Below, one piece after another: positions 13,287 through 64,000 of a stretch of 64,000 nucleotides of DNA. Origin of the DNA: Oceanispirochaeta sp. (lineage in GTDB: Bacteria; Spirochaetota; Spirochaetia; DSM-2461). Under the pieces are notes generated by a model. The model worked only from the letters and a program-made list of their open reading frames with translations, was not told the origin of the DNA and searched no databases. Within the stretch, counting starts at the first letter, position 1. Each line of letters begins with the position of its first letter. A program made the translations under genes and the position numbers. The DNA is taken from the NCBI GenBank assembly GCA_963663385.2, contig CAXXXD010000004.1:96001-160000 (forward strand), written 5' to 3'.

Positions 13287-13314
13287 TTGACACTCTCGGA
13301 TTTTCAGTTATATT
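13287..13314 (+). promoter_or_regulatory. sigma70-like promoter of leader copy 1
   Basis: TTGACA-N16-TATATT; very similar to the promoter at 55595-55622. Confidence 0.7.
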
Positions 13315-13332: not shown

Positions 13333-13483
13333 GGCAGACTAAGGACCCTTAATGCTAACGGTGTCTGCTTATATCTTGATTTAATGAGGTGTAGGTAGTA
13401 AATGCAAGGTGTCCGGACTGCAGGGAATTCCCTCACCGGGACGTACTGGAATTCTGCCTTACCTTCTGTAAAAGGCAGAGTTT
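13333..13483 (+). ncRNA. Conserved structured 5' leader, copy 1 (candidate riboswitch/translational attenuator)
   Basis: GCAGAC-TAAGGACCCTTAATGCTAACGGT-GTCTGC core repeated at 55640 and 60052; alternative helix and SD-sequestering hairpin downstream. Confidence 0.75.
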
Positions 13484-14509
13484 ATGAAAAAAGTAGAAAA
13501 AGGTTTTATCTTTACCAGTTCCGCGTATGTTCTGAAGAACAGTCAGGTCAGATATTACGATTCCATAGAGAAAAATCCGGTTGTAGGAGATGTGGTTTAT
13601 GGAGAAATCTGTCATATAGGCCAGCATTCCAGTCTGGAGAATAAATCCGGTCGAATCCATCAAATCCATAATGGCAGCCGGGCTCTTTTTGTCTTCGGTA
13701 ATCGATACGCTCCGGACTATTATGAGGCTTTTGTACCCGACAGTTTTGAGCCGGAAGTGGATCTTCATGCCCGCAGCGGATTAATCGGTACCGTAAAAAC
13801 AAAAAACTCCCTGATCAAGGATCCATCGAGGGTTAGAATCCTGGGGTATCTCTGTGACGAAAGCGGTAAGGTTATCAACACAAGAGATTATCCTCTGATT
13901 GTGCCCAGAAAAAAGGAAAAGGTGTTCCCCCGGTCAAAGATGATTCTTGTCTGCGGAACTGCCATGAATTCCGGAAAAAGCGTATCCGCCGCTTCTATCT
14001 GCTGGGCCCTGTCCAGGATGGGCCATACGGTCAAAGGATCCAAAATCACGGGAACCGCAAGCCTGAAAGATATTCTGCACATGAATGATGCGGGAGCCGA
14101 TTCATTTTCCGACTTCACATACCTTGGATATCCCACAACCTATATGCTTGATGAAAAAGAGATTGTGGAGGTGTTCAATCATATAGATCTTAAATACGCA
14201 AACAATCCGCAGAATTACTGGGTTGTGGAATTTGCCGACGGAATCAACCAGAGGGAAACGGAAATGCTGTTAATGCATCCCGATGTCAGGAAGAGAATAC
14301 ACAAGCTGGTTTTCTGTGCCAACGATGCTTTCGGTGCAATAGGAGGCGTAAAGTATCTAAAGGAAAAGATAGATCTTACGCCTGATCTGATTTCCGGAGT
14401 CTGTACAAGTTCACCTCTGCATATGCGGGAGCTGAGCAAAGTTACAGATATTCCTATTTTTGATAATATGAATATTAACATTGAAGAGATTAGAGAGAAA
14501 ATAGTCTGA
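13484..14509 (+). CDS. DUF1611-related P-loop-like protein
   Basis: GNRYAPD, VCGTAMNSGKS, KITGT, VVEFADGINQRET; family assignment from recalled motifs. Confidence 0.65.
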   Translation: MKKVEKGFIFTSSAYVLKNSQVRYYDSIEKNPVVGDVVYGEICHIGQHSSLENKSGRIHQIHNGSRALFVFGNRYAPDYYEAFVPDSFEPEVDLHARSGLIGTVKTKNSLIKDPSRVRILGYLCDESGKVINTRDYPLIVPRKKEKVFPRSKMILVCGTAMNSGKSVSAASICWALSRMGHTVKGSKITGTASLKDILHMNDAGADSFSDFTYLGYPTTYMLDEKEIVEVFNHIDLKYANNPQNYWVVEFADGINQRETEMLLMHPDVRKRIHKLVFCANDAFGAIGGVKYLKEKIDLTPDLISGVCTSSPLHMRELSKVTDIPIFDNMNINIEEIREKIV

Positions 14510-14511
14510 AA

Positions 14512-14997
14512 ATGGACACGATGCTGAAAGCGCCTGCTCTTTGCAGCAACCTTGAGCTTGAGCAGTTTAAAAAACTGCTATGTTTGCGTCCCGAGATTGA
14601 TTCCAGAACCATTGAAAGGAGAATCCTGAAGGCTCATACACTGGCTTTTGCTTATGTGGAATCCGTTCTTGTCGGCATCGGGGCTGTTAAATTCGCTAAA
14701 CCGGGTTTCCGTCGCAGAGTTCTGGAGGGACAGAAAGTCCGTCTTCTGGAGGAACTCCCCGACAGGGAACTGGGCTGGCTTTATGTAAAAGAGGATTTCA
14801 GGGGAAGGGGGATCGGATCGGTTCTTTCCTCCGATCTGATTGGAGTTCTGAAGAATAGTCAGGCATATGCATTGACGGATTCTGAAAATCCTGTGACGGG
14901 AAAAATGCTCAGTTCCGGAGGTTTTTTTCAATGCGGCGAGATTCTTCTGGCGAATCACCCGTCCTATTTCCTCTATTTAAAAGACAGCACCCCCTAA
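14512..14997 (+). CDS. GNAT-family N-acetyltransferase
   Basis: ELGWLYVKEDFRGRGIGS acetyl-CoA-binding motif A. Confidence 0.8.
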   Translation: MDTMLKAPALCSNLELEQFKKLLCLRPEIDSRTIERRILKAHTLAFAYVESVLVGIGAVKFAKPGFRRRVLEGQKVRLLEELPDRELGWLYVKEDFRGRGIGSVLSSDLIGVLKNSQAYALTDSENPVTGKMLSSGGFFQCGEILLANHPSYFLYLKDSTP

Positions 14998-54327: not shown

Positions 54328-55485
54328 TCAGGCAGCACAGGGCCGCAGGTTTTTCTCCTCTTTTTGTTTTTTACACAGGATCTGCCGTGTAATGATGACA
54401 GCATACAGAAAGACGGAAACCGCGGCTGAGAGAAGTATCAGGGAATAGAGGCCTGTATTGGGGATAAATATCTTATACAGAAAGGTTCCAAGTACCGCAA
54501 AGGCGACAAAGGGACAGATAAGGCTCCACGTTTCTATATAAAACTTTCCGGTATTCAATTCTCTGGAAAAATACTCCTTCATGACAGAAAGACCGAATCC
54601 CAGGTACCAGAACTCAAAAACAAATCCGCCCAGTACAATCAGGACTGCAAGCCAGTGCATATGGAACTCAAACTGTTTTTCAAAGTAGTGAACAAGTCGG
54701 AATCCGCTGATGGACAGGAGGGTTGTAATGGGAACAGGAGAGAGCAGGGCGGGCATCCCTTTGGGGGCAGGCAGAGATTCTGAATTGAACTGATTTTTCA
54801 GGGCATGGTAGAAGAACAGCCCAAAGAGGAAGACGGTCTGTGATCCGGAAAGAAAAGATAAAAAGGCGGCGATCCCGCTTATGACAGGAGAGTTGGCCAT
54901 CGCAGCCAGTCCCGTACCAGTTACAGTCGTCATTGCCAGAGCAAACGGATGAAGAAGCCAGCTGAAATTTATCTTATCCAAAGAAAAATTTCGGGAAAAA
55001 AGTGACATGAGCATACCTGTCTCTTTTACTATAATGGCTGCCCACAGGATACTCCATAGAGTCAGGGCCGGTGCCATCAGTAACTGAAAATGGTTATGGA
55101 AAAGGGGAACAAAAAACCGGACTACCGCAATAAACACATTAAAAGTCATACCAATTGAAATAAACGGGGTGACAAGAGTGGTGTTATGAAGGGAATCTTT
55201 CTTAAGCTGATAGTATGCGGGAGATCTCATCCATCTGAAAAGACGGGTGAAAAGCTGAGCCGAAAGGATTAAATGAACCGTCCCGAATAGCAGCATTATG
55301 CCCATTAGCAGGGGAAAAAGAACAGACTGAAAGGGGGATAAACCGTCAAATTGAATCCCGTTAAAAGATATAAGACCAGGTCCGCTGTAATAAGTATACT
55401 GAAGAAAGGCAAACGGGATAATTGAGATGCCGCCCGCACCTACAGCTGAAAGAAACTGAAGAGGATAAAACTCTTTCTTTTCCAT
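54328..55485 (-). CDS. Multi-pass membrane protein, TsoY-like (tentative)
   Basis: About 10 hydrophobic segments; N-terminal PLQFLSAVGAGGISIIPF resembles the TsoY family as recalled. Confidence 0.5.
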   Translation of the reverse strand: MEKKEFYPLQFLSAVGAGGISIIPFAFLQYTYYSGPGLISFNGIQFDGLSPFQSVLFPLLMGIMLLFGTVHLILSAQLFTRLFRWMRSPAYYQLKKDSLHNTTLVTPFISIGMTFNVFIAVVRFFVPLFHNHFQLLMAPALTLWSILWAAIIVKETGMLMSLFSRNFSLDKINFSWLLHPFALAMTTVTGTGLAAMANSPVISGIAAFLSFLSGSQTVFLFGLFFYHALKNQFNSESLPAPKGMPALLSPVPITTLLSISGFRLVHYFEKQFEFHMHWLAVLIVLGGFVFEFWYLGFGLSVMKEYFSRELNTGKFYIETWSLICPFVAFAVLGTFLYKIFIPNTGLYSLILLSAAVSVFLYAVIITRQILCKKQKEEKNLRPCAA

Positions 55486-55594: not shown

Positions 55595-55622
55595 TTGACA
55601 AGCATCGAATTTCAGCTATATT
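55595..55622 (+). promoter_or_regulatory. sigma70-like promoter of leader copy 2
   Basis: TTGACA-N16-TATATT. Confidence 0.7.
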
Positions 55623-55638
55623 TGAACATAACATTCAT

Positions 55639-55817
55639 AGCAGACAAAGGACCCTTAATGCTAACAATGTCTGCTTATATCTTTTTTATTCGAAGGAATT
55701 TTCCTGAAAGGGAAATCGTTGAAGGTATAAGTAGTTTCGTTGTAGGTATATAGGGGGGGAGGTCTCGGTCTCCCTGAACAGCGCAGCTCCTCTCTTCGCC
55801 TTCGAAAAGGAGTCATT
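55639..55817 (+). ncRNA. Conserved structured 5' leader, copy 2
   Basis: AGCAGACA-AAGGACCCTTAATGCTAACAA-TGTCTGCT; alternative helix and SD-sequestering hairpin. Confidence 0.75.
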
Positions 55818-56021
55818 ATGAGTTCCAAATTATGGTTTGTTACAAACGGTGTACAGCTGATTCATGTCTTCGAAAAAAGGTCCCTGGCCGAGCAGGAGTT
55901 GAAGAAGTATCAGGACGATCCTGATTACGGTTACTATGATTGCTACGGTCTGGATATCGACGATCTGGAAGACTATCCGGAAGAATATGATATTGCTCTG
56001 GACGAAGGATTCCTTGATTAA
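55818..56021 (+). CDS. Small acidic protein (67 aa), unknown function
   Basis: Strong SD AAGGAG; first ORF after leader copy 2; D/E/Y-rich C-terminal half. Confidence 0.75.
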   Translation: MSSKLWFVTNGVQLIHVFEKRSLAEQELKKYQDDPDYGYYDCYGLDIDDLEDYPEEYDIALDEGFLD

Positions 56022-56070
56022 TGCCGGGATGGATTATTTCCCGGGCGATTGAATGGGAAGGTGTTACTGA

Positions 56071-57279
56071 TTGAAAGATTTTCTTGTCTTCGAAGGGATT
56101 AGTAAATCCTTCGGATCTGTAGAAGTTATCAAAGATCTGAATCTTAACGTCAAAAAGGGAGAGGTCTTCAGTCTGTTGGGACCATCGGGCTGCGGGAAAA
56201 CCACTCTTCTGAAAATATGCGGTGGATTTGAAGAACCCGATGCAGGCAGGATGCTGTTGAATGGCAAGGATATCCTGTCCCTGCCGGGGCATAAGCGTCC
56301 GGTCAATACGGTATTTCAGAATTATGCCCTGTTTCCGCATCTGTCTGTGGGTGAGAATATAGCTTTTGGTCTGAAAGTTTCCCGCAAAGGGTTTTCCAGA
56401 AAAGAGATTTCCAGGGAAGTGGACTGGGCTCTCGATCTTATTCAGATGAATGAATATATCCATAGCAGACCTTCAGAGCTATCAGGAGGTCAGAAGCAGC
56501 GGGTTGCTATTGCAAGAGCGGTTATCAACAAACCGGAGCTCCTGCTTCTGGACGAGCCTTTGGCTGCGCTCGACCTCAAACTCCGTCAGAAAATGCTGCT
56601 GGAACTGGATCAGATTCATGACGAAGTAGGCATAACTTTTCTTTTTGTAACCCATGACCAGGGGGAGGCTATGAGCCTCTCCGACAGAATCGCCATCATG
56701 AACCTGGGGAAAATTGAGCAGGTAGGATCTCCCGCGGAGATCTATGAAAGTCCTGTTTCCAGTTTTACAGCGGCTTTTATTGGTGATACGAATTTTTTTG
56801 ACGGGATTGTCAAATCCCAGAGTGAAGACGGTCAGTATTCAATACTTGATATTGAAGGACTTCCGTCAGCCCGTTGCTACAACGATCAGGCTCATACAGT
56901 GGGGGACCATATCAACCTGTCACTGAGGCCTGAGAAGATCAGGATCAGCAGGAAAGAACCCGAAACTGACAAGTCCCTGAACATTATTAAAGGGGTTGTG
57001 GAAGATAAGGTCTATCTGGGGGCGTATACAAAATACTGGGTTCGCTGCGGAAACTGGCTGATTGTTGTCCTTAATGCTCACAGGCATTTTCTGCTGGACC
57101 GGAATCCTCCGGAATGGGAAGATGAAGTCTGGCTCAGCTGGCATCAGGACGACGGTTTTATATTGCTGAAATACAGGAAAAAGGACGAAGTCCTTTTAAC
57201 GAATCCTGATGAAAAATATGCCGGGATGACCCCTGATCTACAGCCGGGGGCCATACTGCAGTCGGAAGAAGACTCATGA
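56071..57279 (+). CDS. potA: Spermidine/putrescine ABC transporter ATP-binding protein
   Basis: GPSGCGKTT, RPVNTVFQNYALFPH, LSGGQKQRVAIARA, TOBE-like C-terminus. Confidence 0.9.
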   Translation: MKDFLVFEGISKSFGSVEVIKDLNLNVKKGEVFSLLGPSGCGKTTLLKICGGFEEPDAGRMLLNGKDILSLPGHKRPVNTVFQNYALFPHLSVGENIAFGLKVSRKGFSRKEISREVDWALDLIQMNEYIHSRPSELSGGQKQRVAIARAVINKPELLLLDEPLAALDLKLRQKMLLELDQIHDEVGITFLFVTHDQGEAMSLSDRIAIMNLGKIEQVGSPAEIYESPVSSFTAAFIGDTNFFDGIVKSQSEDGQYSILDIEGLPSARCYNDQAHTVGDHINLSLRPEKIRISRKEPETDKSLNIIKGVVEDKVYLGAYTKYWVRCGNWLIVVLNAHRHFLLDRNPPEWEDEVWLSWHQDDGFILLKYRKKDEVLLTNPDEKYAGMTPDLQPGAILQSEEDS

Positions 57280-58133
57280 AGAAACATGAGCTTGTGCTGA
57301 CAACTCCCTCATTCCTCTGGCTCAGTATATTTTTTATTATTCCATCGGCTCTTGTCCTCTTTATCAGCTTCAGGGGAACCGACTCTTATGGCGTCCTTAT
57401 GCCGGTATGGACACTGGATGCGTACAGGTCCCTTTCCGGGATGAATCTGATGCCGGTTATTATCAGGACCCTCAGGCTCAGTCTGTATACCACTTTGATC
57501 TGTCTGATCCTTGCCATTCCGGCCGCCTATGCCATGTCCCGATTGAGCAGGGGGGCGCAGACAATTCTGTTAATGATTCTGGTTGTTCCCTTCTGGACGA
57601 ATTTCCTTATCCGCATCTATGCCTGGAAAGTCCTGCTTCATCCCGATGGATTTATTAAGCAGATTTTTGTCTTTCTAGGGCTGATCGATCAGAATACGAC
57701 CCTTCTCTATACGGAAGGGGCCGTGCTTCTCGTTCTGGTCTATACCTATCTACCTTTTGCCCTGCTCCCCCTATACAGCGCTGCCGACAGCTTTGATATC
57801 ACACTGCTTGATGCCGGCAGGGATTTGGGAAGCAATACACTGCAGCTTATAATCAGGGTTTACCTTCCCGGTATCCGACAGGGGATTATTAATGCGGTCC
57901 TGGTTGTTTTTATCCCGGTCATGGGCAGCTACATCATTCCTGAAATTGTCGGTGGTCCGAATTCGGAAATGCTGGGAAACAAGATTGCCCAGTATGTATT
58001 CACTGACAGGAATATTCCCCGGGCAGGAGCCCTCTCGGGATTTCTGATTCTCATTATCCTCCTTCCATCCCTGATCTCTCTTATAAACAGGGAGAGTCCG
58101 GCCAAAAGCCGGAAGGAGCTGGTGCAGGCATGA
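57276..58133 (+). CDS. potB: Spermidine/putrescine ABC transporter permease
   Basis: PFWTNFLIRIYAW, YTYLPF..LPLY, DAGRDLG. Confidence 0.88.
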   Translation: MKKHELVLTTPSFLWLSIFFIIPSALVLFISFRGTDSYGVLMPVWTLDAYRSLSGMNLMPVIIRTLRLSLYTTLICLILAIPAAYAMSRLSRGAQTILLMILVVPFWTNFLIRIYAWKVLLHPDGFIKQIFVFLGLIDQNTTLLYTEGAVLLVLVYTYLPFALLPLYSAADSFDITLLDAGRDLGSNTLQLIIRVYLPGIRQGIINAVLVVFIPVMGSYIIPEIVGGPNSEMLGNKIAQYVFTDRNIPRAGALSGFLILIILLPSLISLINRESPAKSRKELVQA

Positions 58134-58906
58134 AAAGGAAATCGGCTTTTCCGATGATAATACTCATACTGATTCTTGTTTTCTTCTACCTCCCCCTGTT
58201 TGTACTGGTCATCAATTCATTCAACGCATCCCGGGTCTCTTCAGTATGGGGGGGATTTTCTCTGAAATGGTATAAGAAGCTGCTGGGTGACCAGAATCTG
58301 CTCCGCTCTGTCAAAAATACTGTGATTGTAACAAGTGTCTCGGTATTCTGTTCAACAGTACTGGGGAGTCTGGCGGGTGTGAGCATTGCCCGTTTCAGGA
58401 GCAGGGTGCAAAAAGTGCATTCAGTCTTTATCGCTCTCCCCCTGATCATGCCGGATATCCTGATCGGTATCAGTCTCCTTCTGTTCTTTATCTCATTCAG
58501 GATTCAGCTCTCTCTGCTGACGATTATAATAGGGCATATTACCTTCTGTATCAGTTATGTGGCTTCTACGGTTCAGGCCCGGTTTCAGAATTTTGATTTT
58601 TCCCTGATAGAGGCGGCCCAGGATCTGGGTGCTGACAGATGGCAGGTGTTATGGAAAATATATCTGCCCCTGCTGGCGCCGGGAATCCTCTCCGGTGCCA
58701 TGCTGGCCATGACTCTGTCTCTGGATGATTTTATTATCAGTTTTTTTACGGCGGGGCCGGGTGCTTCAACCCTGCCCATACAAATTTACAGTATGATCCG
58801 TCACGGCTCACCCCCTGTGATTAATGCACTTTCCACGCTTTTTATCGGGTTCACGTTTCTGTTCCTGCTGGTTTATCAGCGGATCTCAAGGAGATTAGAT
58901 CAATGA
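58130..58906 (+). CDS. potC: Spermidine/putrescine ABC transporter permease
   Basis: GFSLKWY, LIEAAQDLGA, SLDDF, TLPIQIYSM. Confidence 0.88.
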   Translation: MKRKSAFPMIILILILVFFYLPLFVLVINSFNASRVSSVWGGFSLKWYKKLLGDQNLLRSVKNTVIVTSVSVFCSTVLGSLAGVSIARFRSRVQKVHSVFIALPLIMPDILIGISLLLFFISFRIQLSLLTIIIGHITFCISYVASTVQARFQNFDFSLIEAAQDLGADRWQVLWKIYLPLLAPGILSGAMLAMTLSLDDFIISFFTAGPGASTLPIQIYSMIRHGSPPVINALSTLFIGFTFLFLLVYQRISRRLDQ

Positions 58907-59949
58907 AAAAAAACTTTTATTACCTGCTGTCGGTTATTGTTTTACTGGCTGTTGTTCTGGGCGGATGTTCCAGAGAGAGCAACCGGAAACTCTATCTGTA
59001 CAACTGGTCCGATTATATCGATGAGGAACTGGTAAAGGCCTTTACAGAAGAAACCGGTATCCAGATTATTATGGACTACTTTGATTCAAACGAGTCCATG
59101 TATGCCAAGTTACGTTCCGGAGCCGATGGTTATGATATTGTATTTCCCACCAGCTATATGGTGGAAATCATGAACGCCGGAGGCATGCTGCAGAAAATCG
59201 ATCATGGAAAGCTGGCGAACCTGAAGAATATTGACCCTAAGTTCACCGTCCTTTCGGTCGATTCCGAAATGGAGTACTCTGTTCCCTATATGGTCAGTAC
59301 TACCGGGATAGGGTATCTGGAATCCGGGCTGGGGGAAGTTGAATCTTTGTCCTGGGATATCTTTGCTTCCCCGGATTATTCATCCAAAATGACAATGCTT
59401 AATGATGTGAGAGAGACGATCGGGGCTGCTTTAAAGTACCTCGGTTACTCCTACAATTCCAGGTCCGGACAGGAGCTGGCGGAAGCCAGAGATCTACTTA
59501 TTTCCTGGAAGAGGAATCTGGCGAAATTTGAGAATGATCAGTATAAGAACGGACTGGTCAGCGGAGAGTTTTCCATATGTCAGGGTTACTCGGGGGATAT
59601 CCTTCAGGTTCAGGAAGAGCGGGATGATCTTCGCTTTATTGTACCAAGAGAGGGCACTTCCATCTCCATTGATAATATGGTGATTCTCAGGAATGCGAAG
59701 AATACGGATGCGGCTTATGAGTTTATTGACTATATGTTAAGGGGTGAAGTTGCTGCCTCCAACATTGAGTATGTGTACTACCTGGCTCCCAATACGGCGG
59801 CATACGGTCTTCTGAGTGATGAAATTCGAAATGATCCGGCTGTCTTCATTTCTGATGATGTACTTGAGAATTCCGAGATTCTTCTGGATCTGGGGGATGA
59901 TAATGAACTGTATAGTCGAACCTGGGATGAAATAAAGTCTGCAAAATGA
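58903..59949 (+). CDS. potD: Spermidine/putrescine-binding lipoprotein
   Basis: Lipobox LGGC; YNWSDYID, FDSNE.MYAKL, YSVPYM, YSGD. Confidence 0.88.
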   Translation: MKKNFYYLLSVIVLLAVVLGGCSRESNRKLYLYNWSDYIDEELVKAFTEETGIQIIMDYFDSNESMYAKLRSGADGYDIVFPTSYMVEIMNAGGMLQKIDHGKLANLKNIDPKFTVLSVDSEMEYSVPYMVSTTGIGYLESGLGEVESLSWDIFASPDYSSKMTMLNDVRETIGAALKYLGYSYNSRSGQELAEARDLLISWKRNLAKFENDQYKNGLVSGEFSICQGYSGDILQVQEERDDLRFIVPREGTSISIDNMVILRNAKNTDAAYEFIDYMLRGEVAASNIEYVYYLAPNTAAYGLLSDEIRNDPAVFISDDVLENSEILLDLGDDNELYSRTWDEIKSAK

Positions 59950-59983
59950 ATATCGAATAAATTAATTTTACATGACCTTTTAC

Positions 59984-60011
59984 TTGACAATCTGTAAATA
60001 TGGATTATTTT
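59984..60011 (+). promoter_or_regulatory. sigma70-like promoter of leader copy 3
   Basis: TTGACA-N16-TATTTT. Confidence 0.5.
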
Positions 60012-60051
60012 TTGTGTTAATTCTGCAAGTTTTTTTAACACTTGTACAGGC

Positions 60052-60197
60052 ACAGACTAAGGACCCTTTATGCTAACAAAAGTCTGTTATCATCTTCATG
60101 TGTGCAGAAAGGTCTTGGAGTTGATTTCAGGAATGTTTCGTAGGGGGGATTCCCCTCTTTTTCCATCATGCCTCTCCTCTCGTGAATAGAGGGATAA
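60052..60197 (+). ncRNA. Conserved structured 5' leader, copy 3
   Basis: ACAGACT-AAGGACCCTTTATGCTAACAAA-AGTCTGT with compensatory changes relative to copies 1 and 2. Confidence 0.72.
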
Positions 60198-60272
60198 ATG
60201 GTATTACAATTATATTTCCTGCTTGTATTGATATTATTGCCGATGTGGATGATGACCGGGATATTGCTGTAG
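60198..60272 (+). CDS. Putative 24-aa hydrophobic peptide MVLQLYFLLVLILLPMWMMTGILL
   Basis: SD-like AGAGGG upstream of the ATG; uncharged, almost wholly hydrophobic sequence; ends 13 nt before the next gene. Confidence 0.45.
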   Translation: MVLQLYFLLVLILLPMWMMTGILL

Positions 60273-60285
60273 ATTGGGGGAAATT

Positions 60286-61356
60286 ATGGATACTGATGAA
60301 TTAGTGGATAACGCTTCAGGTCAGTTGAAATCCGTATTGGAATCTCTAACTGGTTTAAGAGATGAAGTTCTGGATTCCTCAAGGAGTCTGGAGGAGAGGC
60401 TTGAGTCATACCAGGATATTATTGCCTCGGAGGTCGGGGACACCATCCTGAGCAGGATGAGAAATTTAGAGAGAAATGCGGGACTGAAACAGCTCTATAT
60501 CAAATTTGAAGGCAGTAACCCCTCCGGTTCACAGAAAGATCGAATTGCGTTTGCCCAGGTTGATGATGCCATGCGGAGGGGGTATAAAAAGATCGTATTT
60601 GCTACTTGCGGAAATTATGGCGTTGCTATTGCCTTTGCCGCATCTCTGGCCGGGATTGAATGTAAAATCTATATTCCGGAAACCTACCATACAAAGAGAG
60701 AAACTGAAATCCTGAAATTTGGAGTTCAAATTGTCAGAAGAGGCAAGGACTATGAAGAATCTGTTTATCTGTCCAGTCGAGAGGCTGTCGAGTTTGACTG
60801 TTATGATGCAAATCCGGGGGGAGTAAACACAAACCTGCAGATCAAAGCCTATGCAGAGATATCTTATGAAATTTACGATGAGTTGAGAGATGCTCCTGCC
60901 ATAGTGGCTGTTCCAGTATCAAACGGGACTACATTGACCGGGATTTACAGAGGATTTGTCTCTCTGTACAGAAGAGGGAAAACCTCAAGAATTCCCAGAA
61001 TAATAGCAGGTTCAAGTTCAAAGAAGAACCCCATTATTGTCTCTTTCAAACGGGGACTGGATGTTTGTGAAGATCTTGATCCGGCTACTGTGAAAGAATC
61101 GGTAGTCAACGAACCTTTGATTAACTGGCACTCAATAGATGGCAATATGGCATTGAGCGCCCTTAAAGAGTCACAGGGCTGGGCATCGGATGTCAGTGAC
61201 AAGAGCATGATGAAATATGCCAGTCTTCTTAAAAATCAGGAGGGATTGTCTGTTCTGCCGGCTTCAACAGCCGGTTTAATAGCCCTTGTGAAGTATAATG
61301 AAATGCAATCTCTTCCGGGAGATCGTTATGTCGCTGTTATTACAGGAAGGAAATAG
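60286..61356 (+). CDS. Fold-type II PLP-dependent enzyme (threonine synthase-like)
   Basis: KFEGSNPSGSQKDR PLP-lysine motif, ATCGNYG, VPVSNGT; N-terminal helical extension. Confidence 0.85.
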   Translation: MDTDELVDNASGQLKSVLESLTGLRDEVLDSSRSLEERLESYQDIIASEVGDTILSRMRNLERNAGLKQLYIKFEGSNPSGSQKDRIAFAQVDDAMRRGYKKIVFATCGNYGVAIAFAASLAGIECKIYIPETYHTKRETEILKFGVQIVRRGKDYEESVYLSSREAVEFDCYDANPGGVNTNLQIKAYAEISYEIYDELRDAPAIVAVPVSNGTTLTGIYRGFVSLYRRGKTSRIPRIIAGSSSKKNPIIVSFKRGLDVCEDLDPATVKESVVNEPLINWHSIDGNMALSALKESQGWASDVSDKSMMKYASLLKNQEGLSVLPASTAGLIALVKYNEMQSLPGDRYVAVITGRK

Positions 61357-61358
61357 GT

Positions 61359-62429
61359 ATGTATATCGATGGTCATGCTGTTGTATATTGTGAGGGAGCT
61401 TTTGCATCGACATATGGGAAAACGGCTCATGGTCTTGTTCGCTATACGCAAAGGTATAATCTGGTTGCGGTCATTGACAGTAGTCTGGCCGGAAGGGATT
61501 CCGGGGATTTTCTTGATAATGCCCCTAATGGTATACCCATAGTCTCATCCCTTAATGAAGCATTTAAAGTAGCGAACTCTCAAACGGTAGAGTTATCCTA
61601 CTTTGTTCTGGGGATTGCCACTGATGGCGGATATTTAACTCAGGATATCAGGTCTGCTGTTATTGAAGCTCTGGAGTCTGGATTGAATGTTGATTCCGGA
61701 CTTCATGACTTTCTTAATGACGACAGGGAAATCAGACTCCTGGCTGAATCATACGGTCTTGGTATTCGTGATATCAGAAAACTGGACGGGAACAGCAACC
61801 ACATGTTCACTGGCAAGATTGAAGAGGTTAAAGCCATAAGAGTTGCGCTGCTTGGCACGGACTCAGCCATCGGAAAAAGGACGACAGCCTGGATAATTAC
61901 CAATGCCATGGCAGACAGGGGGCTCTCGGCAGAATTCATCGGAACAGGCCAGACGGCATGGCTGCAGGGGGCAGACTACAGTATTGTCATGGATTCATTA
62001 CTGAATGATTATGTCAGCGGTGAACTGGAACATATTGTGTGGAAGGCCTGGACTGAAAAAAAAATGGATTATGCCATAATTGAAGGTCAGGGCAGCCTCA
62101 TGAATCCCGGATATCCCGGTGGCTTTGAGATTTTGGCTGCGTGCAGACCCCACGGGATTATTCTTCAGCATTCTCCCTCCCGGAAGGAGTACGACGGATT
62201 TCCGGGGTATCCTCTGGATAGGATAGAGGACCAGATTCACGCTATTGAATTCCTGTCAAAAAAACCGGTAGTCGCCATTACAATTAATCATGAAGGTATC
62301 CGGCGTGATAAAATTGCTGAGGAGTGTCAGGCCCTGGAAAACAAGCTGGGGATACCAGTCGTTGATCCTCTGGTGGATGGTGCAGAACGGATTATTCCGG
62401 TTATTGAAGAGCTGAAAAATGAAAATTGA
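61359..62429 (+). CDS. DUF1611/DgcN-like protein (putative N-acetyltransferase)
   Basis: GKTAHGLVRY, SGLHDFL, GTDSAIGKRTT, GTGQT, IEGQGSL. Confidence 0.82.
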   Translation: MYIDGHAVVYCEGAFASTYGKTAHGLVRYTQRYNLVAVIDSSLAGRDSGDFLDNAPNGIPIVSSLNEAFKVANSQTVELSYFVLGIATDGGYLTQDIRSAVIEALESGLNVDSGLHDFLNDDREIRLLAESYGLGIRDIRKLDGNSNHMFTGKIEEVKAIRVALLGTDSAIGKRTTAWIITNAMADRGLSAEFIGTGQTAWLQGADYSIVMDSLLNDYVSGELEHIVWKAWTEKKMDYAIIEGQGSLMNPGYPGGFEILAACRPHGIILQHSPSRKEYDGFPGYPLDRIEDQIHAIEFLSKKPVVAITINHEGIRRDKIAEECQALENKLGIPVVDPLVDGAERIIPVIEELKNEN

Positions 62430-63480
62430 TGATTTTGAAGTAGTAAAAGTCTGTTTACAGATGAAGGACCCCTATGAGGTCGCCTATGAAAAGTTTGACA
62501 AAGCAGAAAACCTGCTGATCAGAATCAGCGCCGGGAAACTGCATGGATGGGGGTGTATTGCTCCCGATCCTCATGTCACAGGCGAAAATATTGAAGACGT
62601 TTATAGAAAATCTTTAGAGATCCTTCCGGAAGTTCTTCTTAAAAGAGATCCCTTCAGGAAAGCGCTCATAATGAAATATCTGAAAGCGGCAGCTCCGGGG
62701 TTGTTCAGCCTCTGGGCAGGTGTTGATACGGCTCTCTGGGACCTGCTGGGCAAACAGGCCCATCTGCCAATCTGGAAAATCCTGGGAGGATATCGGAACT
62801 ATATCAGTACCAGTGTTACCATAGGTATCTGTGGAATCGACGAGACCCTGGAAAGGGCCCGGGATTTTGAGCTTCAGGGGTTTCATATTCTCAAGATAAA
62901 GGGCGGGAATGATGTTTCGGAGGATATAGCACGGCTTCAGGGACTCCGCTCGGCTCTGGGAACGGATATGAAAATCCGATTTGACGCAAATCAGGGTTAT
63001 TCTGTTGAAGAAGCTCTTTTCTTTGTCAAAAATATAAAAGAACTCGACATTCAGCTGTTTGAACAGCCGACGATTAAATCCAAACCCGATCAGTTGGGTG
63101 CAATTATAAATAAAACAAATATACCAATTATGGCAGACGAAAGCCTGGTTTCTCTTCTGGATGCTTTTTCTCTGGTAAAAAAAGGCCTGATAGATCTGAT
63201 GAATATTAAACTGATGAAAGTGGGCGGGATCACAGAGGCCATCCAGGTCGATGGTCTTGCAAGGGCCGCCGGAGTGGAGGTTATGGTCGGATGTATGGAC
63301 GAAGCGGCTTTGGGTATTTCAGCAGGTCTGCATTTTGCCCTCAGTCGAAAAAACATCAGGTTTGCAGACCTGGATGGCCATCTGGGATTGATTGATGATC
63401 CGTCAATAGAATGCATTTCATTAAACAGGGGGAAACTTTATCCTTCCGGTTCTCCCGGATTCGGCTGGGCAGGGATGTAG
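62419..63480 (+). CDS. Enolase-superfamily dipeptide epimerase/N-acyl-amino acid racemase (L-Ala-D/L-Glu epimerase/DgcA-like)
   Basis: KIKG, RFDANQGY, EQP, MADES, NIKLMKVGG, DLDG. Confidence 0.88.
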   Translation: MKIDDFEVVKVCLQMKDPYEVAYEKFDKAENLLIRISAGKLHGWGCIAPDPHVTGENIEDVYRKSLEILPEVLLKRDPFRKALIMKYLKAAAPGLFSLWAGVDTALWDLLGKQAHLPIWKILGGYRNYISTSVTIGICGIDETLERARDFELQGFHILKIKGGNDVSEDIARLQGLRSALGTDMKIRFDANQGYSVEEALFFVKNIKELDIQLFEQPTIKSKPDQLGAIINKTNIPIMADESLVSLLDAFSLVKKGLIDLMNIKLMKVGGITEAIQVDGLARAAGVEVMVGCMDEAALGISAGLHFALSRKNIRFADLDGHLGLIDDPSIECISLNRGKLYPSGSPGFGWAGM

Positions 63481-63523: not shown

Positions 63524-64000
63524 TTAGAACCATTTTTTCCGCTTGAAAATGAAAATCATAACTCCGGCTAAACCAATAAGCAGCAGCCAGAAATAGAGAT
63601 AACCGTATCGCAGGTGCAGTTCCGGTATAAAATCGAAATTTGTCCCGTAAATTCCGGTAATAAGGGTCAATGGTAAGAAAACGACCGAAAATACGGTTAG
63701 AAATTTAATAGTCTCGTTCAGCTTGTCATTCATCAATCCGTTATACCTGGCCAGGTATTCATTGCATATCTCTTTGTACAGGTCTATTGTTTCAATAACC
63801 TGGGTCATATTTGCTATAAGGTCAGAAAAATAGATCCTGTACTTCTCTTCGATTAGTGGTTGAGATTCTTTCAGAAGGATTCGTAATGCTTCTCTGGCTG
63901 GTCTGACAGCTTTCCCTAAATACAATAATTCCTTTTTAGAGGCCTGTATGGATCCAAGGACTTTTTCATCGGCACTAACCGTGAGCATTTCTTCTGTTTT
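63524..64000 (-). CDS. corA: CorA-family Mg2+/Co2+ transporter (C-terminal part; start lies beyond the window)
   Basis: LNETIKFLTVFSVVFLPLTLITGIYGTNF..IPEL...YGY, FKRKKWF. Confidence 0.85.
   Translation of the reverse strand, partial: KTEEMLTVSADEKVLGSIQASKKELLYLGKAVRPAREALRILLKESQPLIEEKYRIYFSDLIANMTQVIETIDLYKEICNEYLARYNGLMNDKLNETIKFLTVFSVVFLPLTLITGIYGTNFDFIPELHLRYGYLYFWLLLIGLAGVMIFIFKRKKWF

Follow-up and report, generated by a model that had tools for sequence, protein, structure and literature searches.

A 35-nt leader hairpin of Spirochaetia, a candidate orphan riboswitch associated with polyamine genes and a small acidic protein

Which signal, if any, is read by a short hairpin that heads three operons in one stretch of DNA from a free-living spirochaete is the question considered here. 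The window, a 64,000-nt stretch from Oceanispirochaeta sp. (contig CAXXXD010000004.1, positions 96,001 to 160,000), contains the 19-nt core AAGGACCCTTWATGCTAAC in three exact copies (0 mismatches) at 13341, 55647 and 60059, all on the + strand, compared with 0.03 copies expected in shuffled windows, and pattern and covariance-model searches of the 5.3-Mb genome returned these three copies only. Each copy is a hairpin, GCAGAC-N3-GGACCC-N5-GCTAAC-N3/4-GTCTGC, and all three sit downstream of a sigma70-like promoter. The original prediction had placed leader copies ahead of three operons that lack a transcription-factor gene; the copies proved to be real, exact and on the + strand, and DNA-binding domains were matched in 0 of the 9 operon proteins scanned. 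With somewhat better than even confidence, the motif appears to be an uncatalogued orphan riboswitch that would report polyamine or related cation status. The features of the three leaders are as follows.

13287..13314, + strand: promoter of copy 1, sigma70-like, TTGACA-16-TATATT
13334..13368, + strand: motif copy 1, 68 bits
13386..13414, + strand: competing strand of copy 1, GAGGTGTAGGTAG...GCAAGGTGTCC
13449..13483, + strand: hairpin over the ribosome-binding site of the P-loop gene
55595..55622, + strand: promoter of copy 2, sigma70-like, TTGACA-16-TATATT, 11/12 consensus matches
55640..55674, + strand: motif copy 2, candidate aptamer, P1 stem GCAGAC/GTCTGC closing GGACCC-N5-GCTAAC, 78 bits
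55722..55755, + strand: competing strand (anti-aptamer) of copy 2, pairing with the P1 3' arm and the conserved loop
59984..60011, + strand: promoter of copy 3, sigma70-like
60052..60087, + strand: motif copy 3, subtype B with an ACAGAC/GTCTGT stem, 61 bits
60142..60163, + strand: terminator-like GC hairpin and T run, predicted to form when the copy 3 aptamer forms

Comparison of 63 distinct copies, collected as described below, defined the motif as a 35-nt hairpin in which a 6-bp stem closes a near-invariant internal loop, GGA(C/A)CC / GCUAAC. This symmetric 6x6 segment lies between the stem and a free terminal loop of 5-7 nt (GNRA-like in several copies), is mostly non-canonical, and is predicted to pair in the order G-C, G.A, A.A, M.U, C.C, C-G before the free loop begins; an element so nearly invariant and yet non-canonical would fit a binding pocket. 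In an alignment of 59 of the 63 copies, four near-identical ones being omitted, 94.5% of cells pair, G-U wobbles are present in the P1 stem, and both sides have changed in 4 of 9 pairs (1/500 shuffles), G15-C33 becoming C-G in one copy, statistics that overstate the covariation because most stem pairs are invariant or changed in one sequence and the copies are related. A TTG-type -35 box with a -10 box was found within 90 nt upstream of 35/63 copies, versus 4.3% of random genome windows, mostly at a distance of 45-50 or 67-71 nt. The element is thus a conserved, structured 5'-leader element in sense orientation behind a promoter, as is general for riboswitches, and its conservation, position, covariation and gene context are matters of observation. 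Lying in sense ahead of a few recurring genes, the copies are not a dispersed repeat, in agreement with the RNA leader that had been predicted.

A second fold competes with the hairpin. A downstream competing hairpin (at least 12 of 14 pairs) was found in 41/63 copies versus 7% in shuffles; its strand base-pairs with the stem's 3' arm and often reaches into the loop, and the 3.4 G-U pairs that it contains on average make it strand-specific and RNA-like. The alternative fold beats the aptamer fold by 3.0 kcal/mol versus 0.4 in shuffled leaders, with 44/58 leaders above control. The leader is a poised two-state element, and the mutually exclusive folds expected of an expression platform are found computationally. 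When the aptamer is forced, the mean gain in opening of the Shine-Dalgarno sequence is +1.07 versus +0.03 in shuffles (38/58 leaders above control), the individual values being +6.7 for copy 1, -0.3 for copy 2 and, for the two short speA leaders, +3.6 and +2.0.

The genes within 1.5 kb of the 63 copies give the best indication of what might be sensed. Polyamine genes lie behind 13/63 copies (potA 7, speA 5, pyruvoyl arginine decarboxylase 1). The motif-led potABCD genes belong to two lineages with only 44-47% identity in PotA and 36-40% in PotD, the speA operons run speA-CASDH-CASDC-agmatinase (speB), and the pyruvoyl arginine decarboxylase is non-homologous to speA. That two transporter lineages for uptake and two unrelated decarboxylases for synthesis follow the motif is the most telling pointer to the signal. 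The commonest target is a small acidic protein, whose gene is the first after 42/63 copies and had been missed in the predicted gene list of the window's pot operon. Other genes near copies encode a pyridoxal 5'-phosphate (PLP) enzyme (5), a P-loop protein (5, as first gene behind 5/63 copies), RimK (5), Ddl-like/M20 proteins (2), SET proteins (2), S21 (3), RRM proteins (7), RNase D-like proteins (2), MscS (3) and TrkH (1, TrkH/TrkA), with a DHH-DHHA1 protein behind one copy. The trio of PLP enzyme, DUF1611 protein and epimerase was intact behind the motif at 3/3 other loci, a fourth carrying it in broken form, and this genome's own Ddl-M20 genes are without the motif; regulon membership is fluid between genomes. 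At one locus (L015), a decayed P-loop gene start lies about 130-290 nt after the motif and is followed by rpsU, which suggests how rpsU came under the motif. Both enzyme operons of the window sit behind the motif in other genomes too. The RNA-controlled regulon that was predicted therefore holds in outline, with its centre in the small acidic protein and polyamine supply; D-amino-acid metabolism is a weak theme, the diagnostic associations being polyamine uptake and synthesis.

The genes of the three operons in the window, and one gene remnant, are as follows.

13484..14509, + strand: P-loop NTPase of 341 amino acids (aa), with a dethiobiotin-synthetase/MinD-like C-terminal fold and a beta-rich N-domain
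14512..14997, + strand: GNAT acetyltransferase
55818..56021, + strand: small acidic protein of 67 aa, opening the pot operon, intact, previously unlisted
56071..57279, + strand: PotA-like ATPase, TIGR01187 above cut-off
57276..58133, + strand: PotB-like permease
58130..58906, + strand: PotC-like permease
58903..59949, + strand: PotD-like polyamine-binding lipoprotein, best PDB matches spermidine/putrescine-binding proteins (E 1e-65)
60198..60274, + strand: frameshifted small-acidic-protein remnant, DIIADVDDDRDIAVD in one frame and ATG in another
60274..61356, + strand: fold-type II PLP enzyme (PALP), PRK06381 'threonine synthase'-like family above cut-off, ATG start at 60286 likely
61359..62429, + strand: DUF1611 protein, PF07755 and PF17396, distant from DgcN (163 bits versus a cut-off of 480)
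62419..63480, + strand: enolase-superfamily epimerase/racemase, L-Ala-D/L-Glu epimerase-like

The small acidic protein consists of 28% Asp/Glu, 9% Lys/Arg and 16% aromatic residues, has 41 representatives at E<=0.001, and is modeled as a compact beta-beta-alpha-beta-alpha-alpha domain (predicted local distance difference test, pLDDT, 88). A fold search with this model gave nothing significant (Tic22, Z 5.2; AcrIIC5, Z 4.2), and a weak Pfam match to DUF7336 has E 0.04. As a guess from its composition, the protein may bind polyamine or a cation. The remnant between copy 3 and the PLP gene was recognised as that of a paralogue by comparison with subtype B proteins, and is unchanged in contigs of two DNA runs, which may be the window's own source. 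A second paralogue in this genome (G000:C3:1187774, +) has its own promoter-like site and no motif. Divergent back-to-back motif pairs, each copy heading its own small-acidic-protein gene, were also seen (G019:C1:1058499-1058737; G023:C248:15250-15489; G439:C399:1693-1935). Contigs from one RNA run (0.09 share) are identical to the window over a few short stretches of potC/potD but nowhere on the leaders, and are uninformative on starts and expression.

The remote P-loop gene had been labelled DUF1611, a label that sits only on some of its homologues in databases; PF07755 and PF17396 are unmatched in its product. The 341-aa protein has no Pfam or NCBIfam match at E<=1e-3 (the best Pfam entry is CbiA, E 0.004) and no BLAST similarity to the DUF1611 protein of the window (E 1.6), and its model (pLDDT 87) resembles P-loop NTPases of the dethiobiotin-synthetase/MinD type (best E 1e-5). 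On a Priestia megaterium plasmid (L178, 3724-12412), a distant homologue shares a gene cluster with two ATP-grasp ligases, an M20 peptidase and a gene of the PEP-mutase family, an arrangement suggestive of amide ligation. The DUF1611 protein beside an enolase-family racemase/epimerase recalls DgcN-DgcA, a D-glutamate pathway (NCBIfam NF041892, NF042940); the window pair, however, falls far below the equivalog cut-offs (163/480 and 148/400), is preceded by a PLP enzyme and is under an RNA leader. Outside the operons, a TsoY-family (seleno)protein gene (54328-55485, - strand, NF047644 above cut-off) is divergent from the copy 2 promoter, and a CorA-type Mg2+ transporter gene (63524-64000, - strand) converges on the epimerase gene, CorA being also found near two other motif-led loci, L117 and L220. 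In Salmonella, Mg2+ starvation induces polyamine synthesis, according to excerpts of PMC9972920.

The motif is narrowly distributed. All copies with a named source come from Spirochaetia, in at least 7 families. It is present in 18/41 relatives, this genome counted, and in family genomes in 19/38 by pattern and 20/38 by covariance model; in genomes of the class, the model matched 21/151 at E<=0.1, of which 15 reach at least 36 bits and span 7 families. A GTDB-wide pattern scan gave 18 hits, 18/18 in Spirochaetia, from scans that kept the stem letters fixed, stem-sequence variants in other phyla being outside their reach. The exact pattern was found in 0/400 genomes of other Spirochaetota, viral contigs gave 0 motif matches, and 4 plasmids of other phyla carrying homologous enzyme loci had no motif. 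The set of 63 includes 11 of 23 metagenome hits; the other 12 were discarded as chance, lying inside open reading frames or without an extended stem (8/12 were scored, at 17.6 bits or less), and weak model hits (E 0.015-0.09) were also excluded. At L170/L171 (1500-1780), likewise left out of the count, an intact GGACCC-N5-GCTAAC core with a weakened stem and a very short leader precedes a divergent small acidic protein. The search pattern offered with the original prediction is too narrow, missing GGAACC variants, 5-7-nt loops and 4-nt linkers.

Known RNAs were compared with the motif, the cited papers being drawn on in excerpt throughout. Rfam scans of the window (gathering thresholds) and of three leaders (E<=10) gave chance hits only and matched no family, and no description of the motif was found in a literature search that did not extend to the supplementary motif lists of PMC5737381 and PMC11109978, which may bear on novelty; the main text of PMC11109978 describes no candidate linked to polyamines. 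The nearest parallel in gene context is the ldcC RNA (RF02440, SpF59_sRNA), described (Weinberg et al. 2017, PMC5737381) as a small orphan hairpin that lies in the 5' untranslated regions of potA and of arginine/ornithine decarboxylase genes, has been reported from two spirochaete species and is proposed to act in polyamine homeostasis. The motif too heads polyamine decarboxylase or potA genes (the 13 copies above), whereas the ldcC consensus has a GACC/GGUC stem and a AAGGCCAUACGGACAGCCG bulge. The RF02440 model matched no motif copy and 0/38 family genomes above cut-off, gave 56 bits on a true spirochaete ldcC locus as positive control, and the motif model in turn had no match on a true ldcC locus. 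At L188 (388-447), in a different family of spirochaetes, a true ldcC RNA precedes a decarboxylase of the Firmicutes type. The spermidine riboswitch, a SAM-I variant upstream of polyamine biosynthesis genes that acts as an OFF switch by termination in Gram-positive hosts (PMC10853860), shares with the motif the polyamine genes downstream and differs in its four-way SAM-I architecture, for which neither the window nor the leaders gave a match. The odc1 and potE motifs differ by description and host range (PMC8632094).

If the motif is a riboswitch for polyamine or a related cation, the GCAGAC/GUCUGC stem would form first and hold the near-invariant loop. In the unbound state, that loop and the 3' arm of the stem would be taken over by the downstream strand. 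A bound ligand would keep the aptamer folded and leave the downstream strand free, with the predicted effect of exposing the ribosome-binding site (copy 1 and the short speA leaders) or of permitting terminator formation (copy 3 and subtype B). Such a regulon would group the small acidic protein with polyamine import and biosynthesis and with enzymes for the acylation, ligation or epimerisation of amines and glutamate. Ligand binding, the identity of the ligand and the direction of the switch are what we infer here, and several results, together with the limits on covariation given above, weigh against this interpretation. No polyamine gene lies within 1.5 kb of 50/63 copies, some of them from short loci, and this genome's own speA operon has no motif. 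The predicted output is mixed in direction: with the aptamer forced, the ribosome-binding site opens easier by >1 kcal in 21/57 leaders and harder in 9 (6 leaders having no assigned start), whereas in subtype B a GC hairpin with a short U run has a probability of 0.70-0.95 with the aptamer versus 0.00-0.50 without it (7/8 leaders tested, copy 3 included), favoured by the aptamer because the G run of the hairpin pairs with the aptamer CCCU. Copy 1 is accordingly modeled as ON and copy 3 as OFF, copy 2 leaning clearly neither way, and co-regulation of the operons in the same direction is not supported by the folding; perhaps the three operons share a signal but not its sign. The short speA leaders are also predicted to be ON, which would be odd for an end-product sensor.

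Other explanations must be weighed against a polyamine riboswitch. Sensing of osmotic or ionic state, through cyclic di-AMP (c-di-AMP) or K+/Na+ by a minimised relative of the ydaO riboswitch, is unlikely. GGACCC and GCUAAC do face each other in the same register in one sequence of the c-di-AMP riboswitch (ydaO, RF00379), where these hexamers close a helix beside a 'bubble' that is mostly unresolved in the crystal (PMC5393176), itself a point against leaning on the likeness. Both RNAs have some osmotic gene links, here MscS behind 3 copies, TrkH/TrkA behind 1 and DHH-DHHA1 behind 1, although such ion-transport genes are a minority and never the first gene. The c-di-AMP riboswitch, however, is 108 nt long with two ligand pockets and a pseudoknot, against about 35 nt without the two-pocket architecture. 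RF00379 had no match in this genome or in 61 genomes of relatives (the control matched in 2/14 genomes); with the full riboswitch absent, though this genome has two DAC-domain genes, the likeness is a lead and no more. That the hairpin instead binds a ribosomal, RNA-binding or small acidic protein which tips the two folds is quite unlikely. Proteins commonly bind tandem G.A/A.A internal loops, S21 (3), RRM (7) and RNase D-like (2) genes lie behind some copies, and the small protein is linked to 42/63; yet this protein, with its excess of Asp/Glu (28%) over Lys/Arg (9%), is unlike an RNA binder, matches no known fold significantly (best Z 5.2), and has a paralogue in the genome without the motif.

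It is improbable that the two-state leader responds to cold or pressure and has no specific ligand. Its two folds lie within about 3 kcal/mol, and genes for RRM proteins, S21 and RimK respond to cold in other bacteria, but a nearly invariant unpaired core over 7 families exceeds the needs of a thermometer. Least credible, and very improbable indeed, is a DNA operator of an unlinked transcription factor: the 6-bp inverted repeat lies just past the promoter and keeps a constant spacing to the -35 box, whereas the G-U-type stem changes, the variable spacing of half-sites, an invariant core that is asymmetric and contains a compensatory pair, and the G-U-rich competing hairpin all argue against an operator.

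A wider proposal, which is doubtful as a whole, is that a minimal 35-nt riboswitch class of free-living spirochaetes is built on the loop module of the c-di-AMP bubble, senses a polyamine or monovalent cation, and controls previously unlinked enzymes (PLP/DUF1611/epimerase, P-loop/GNAT, RimK, Ddl-M20) as well as a 67-aa protein, acidic and aromatic, that buffers polyamines; this set might constitute an undescribed polyamine-glutamate conjugate pathway. The narrow range, with all named-source copies in Spirochaetia, limits what follows. The SAM-I variant is called the first convincing spermidine riboswitch in excerpts of PMC10853860; the motif is a second, unrelated candidate of 35 nt with strong polyamine gene links. 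If its core is common to the bubble of the c-di-AMP riboswitch, a function would be given to that poorly resolved element. The regulon gives a guilt-by-association handle on several widespread families of unassigned function, namely the PRK06381 PLP enzyme, DUF1611, the P-loop family with its at least 1439 homologues and the SET proteins of bacteria, and on the new small protein.

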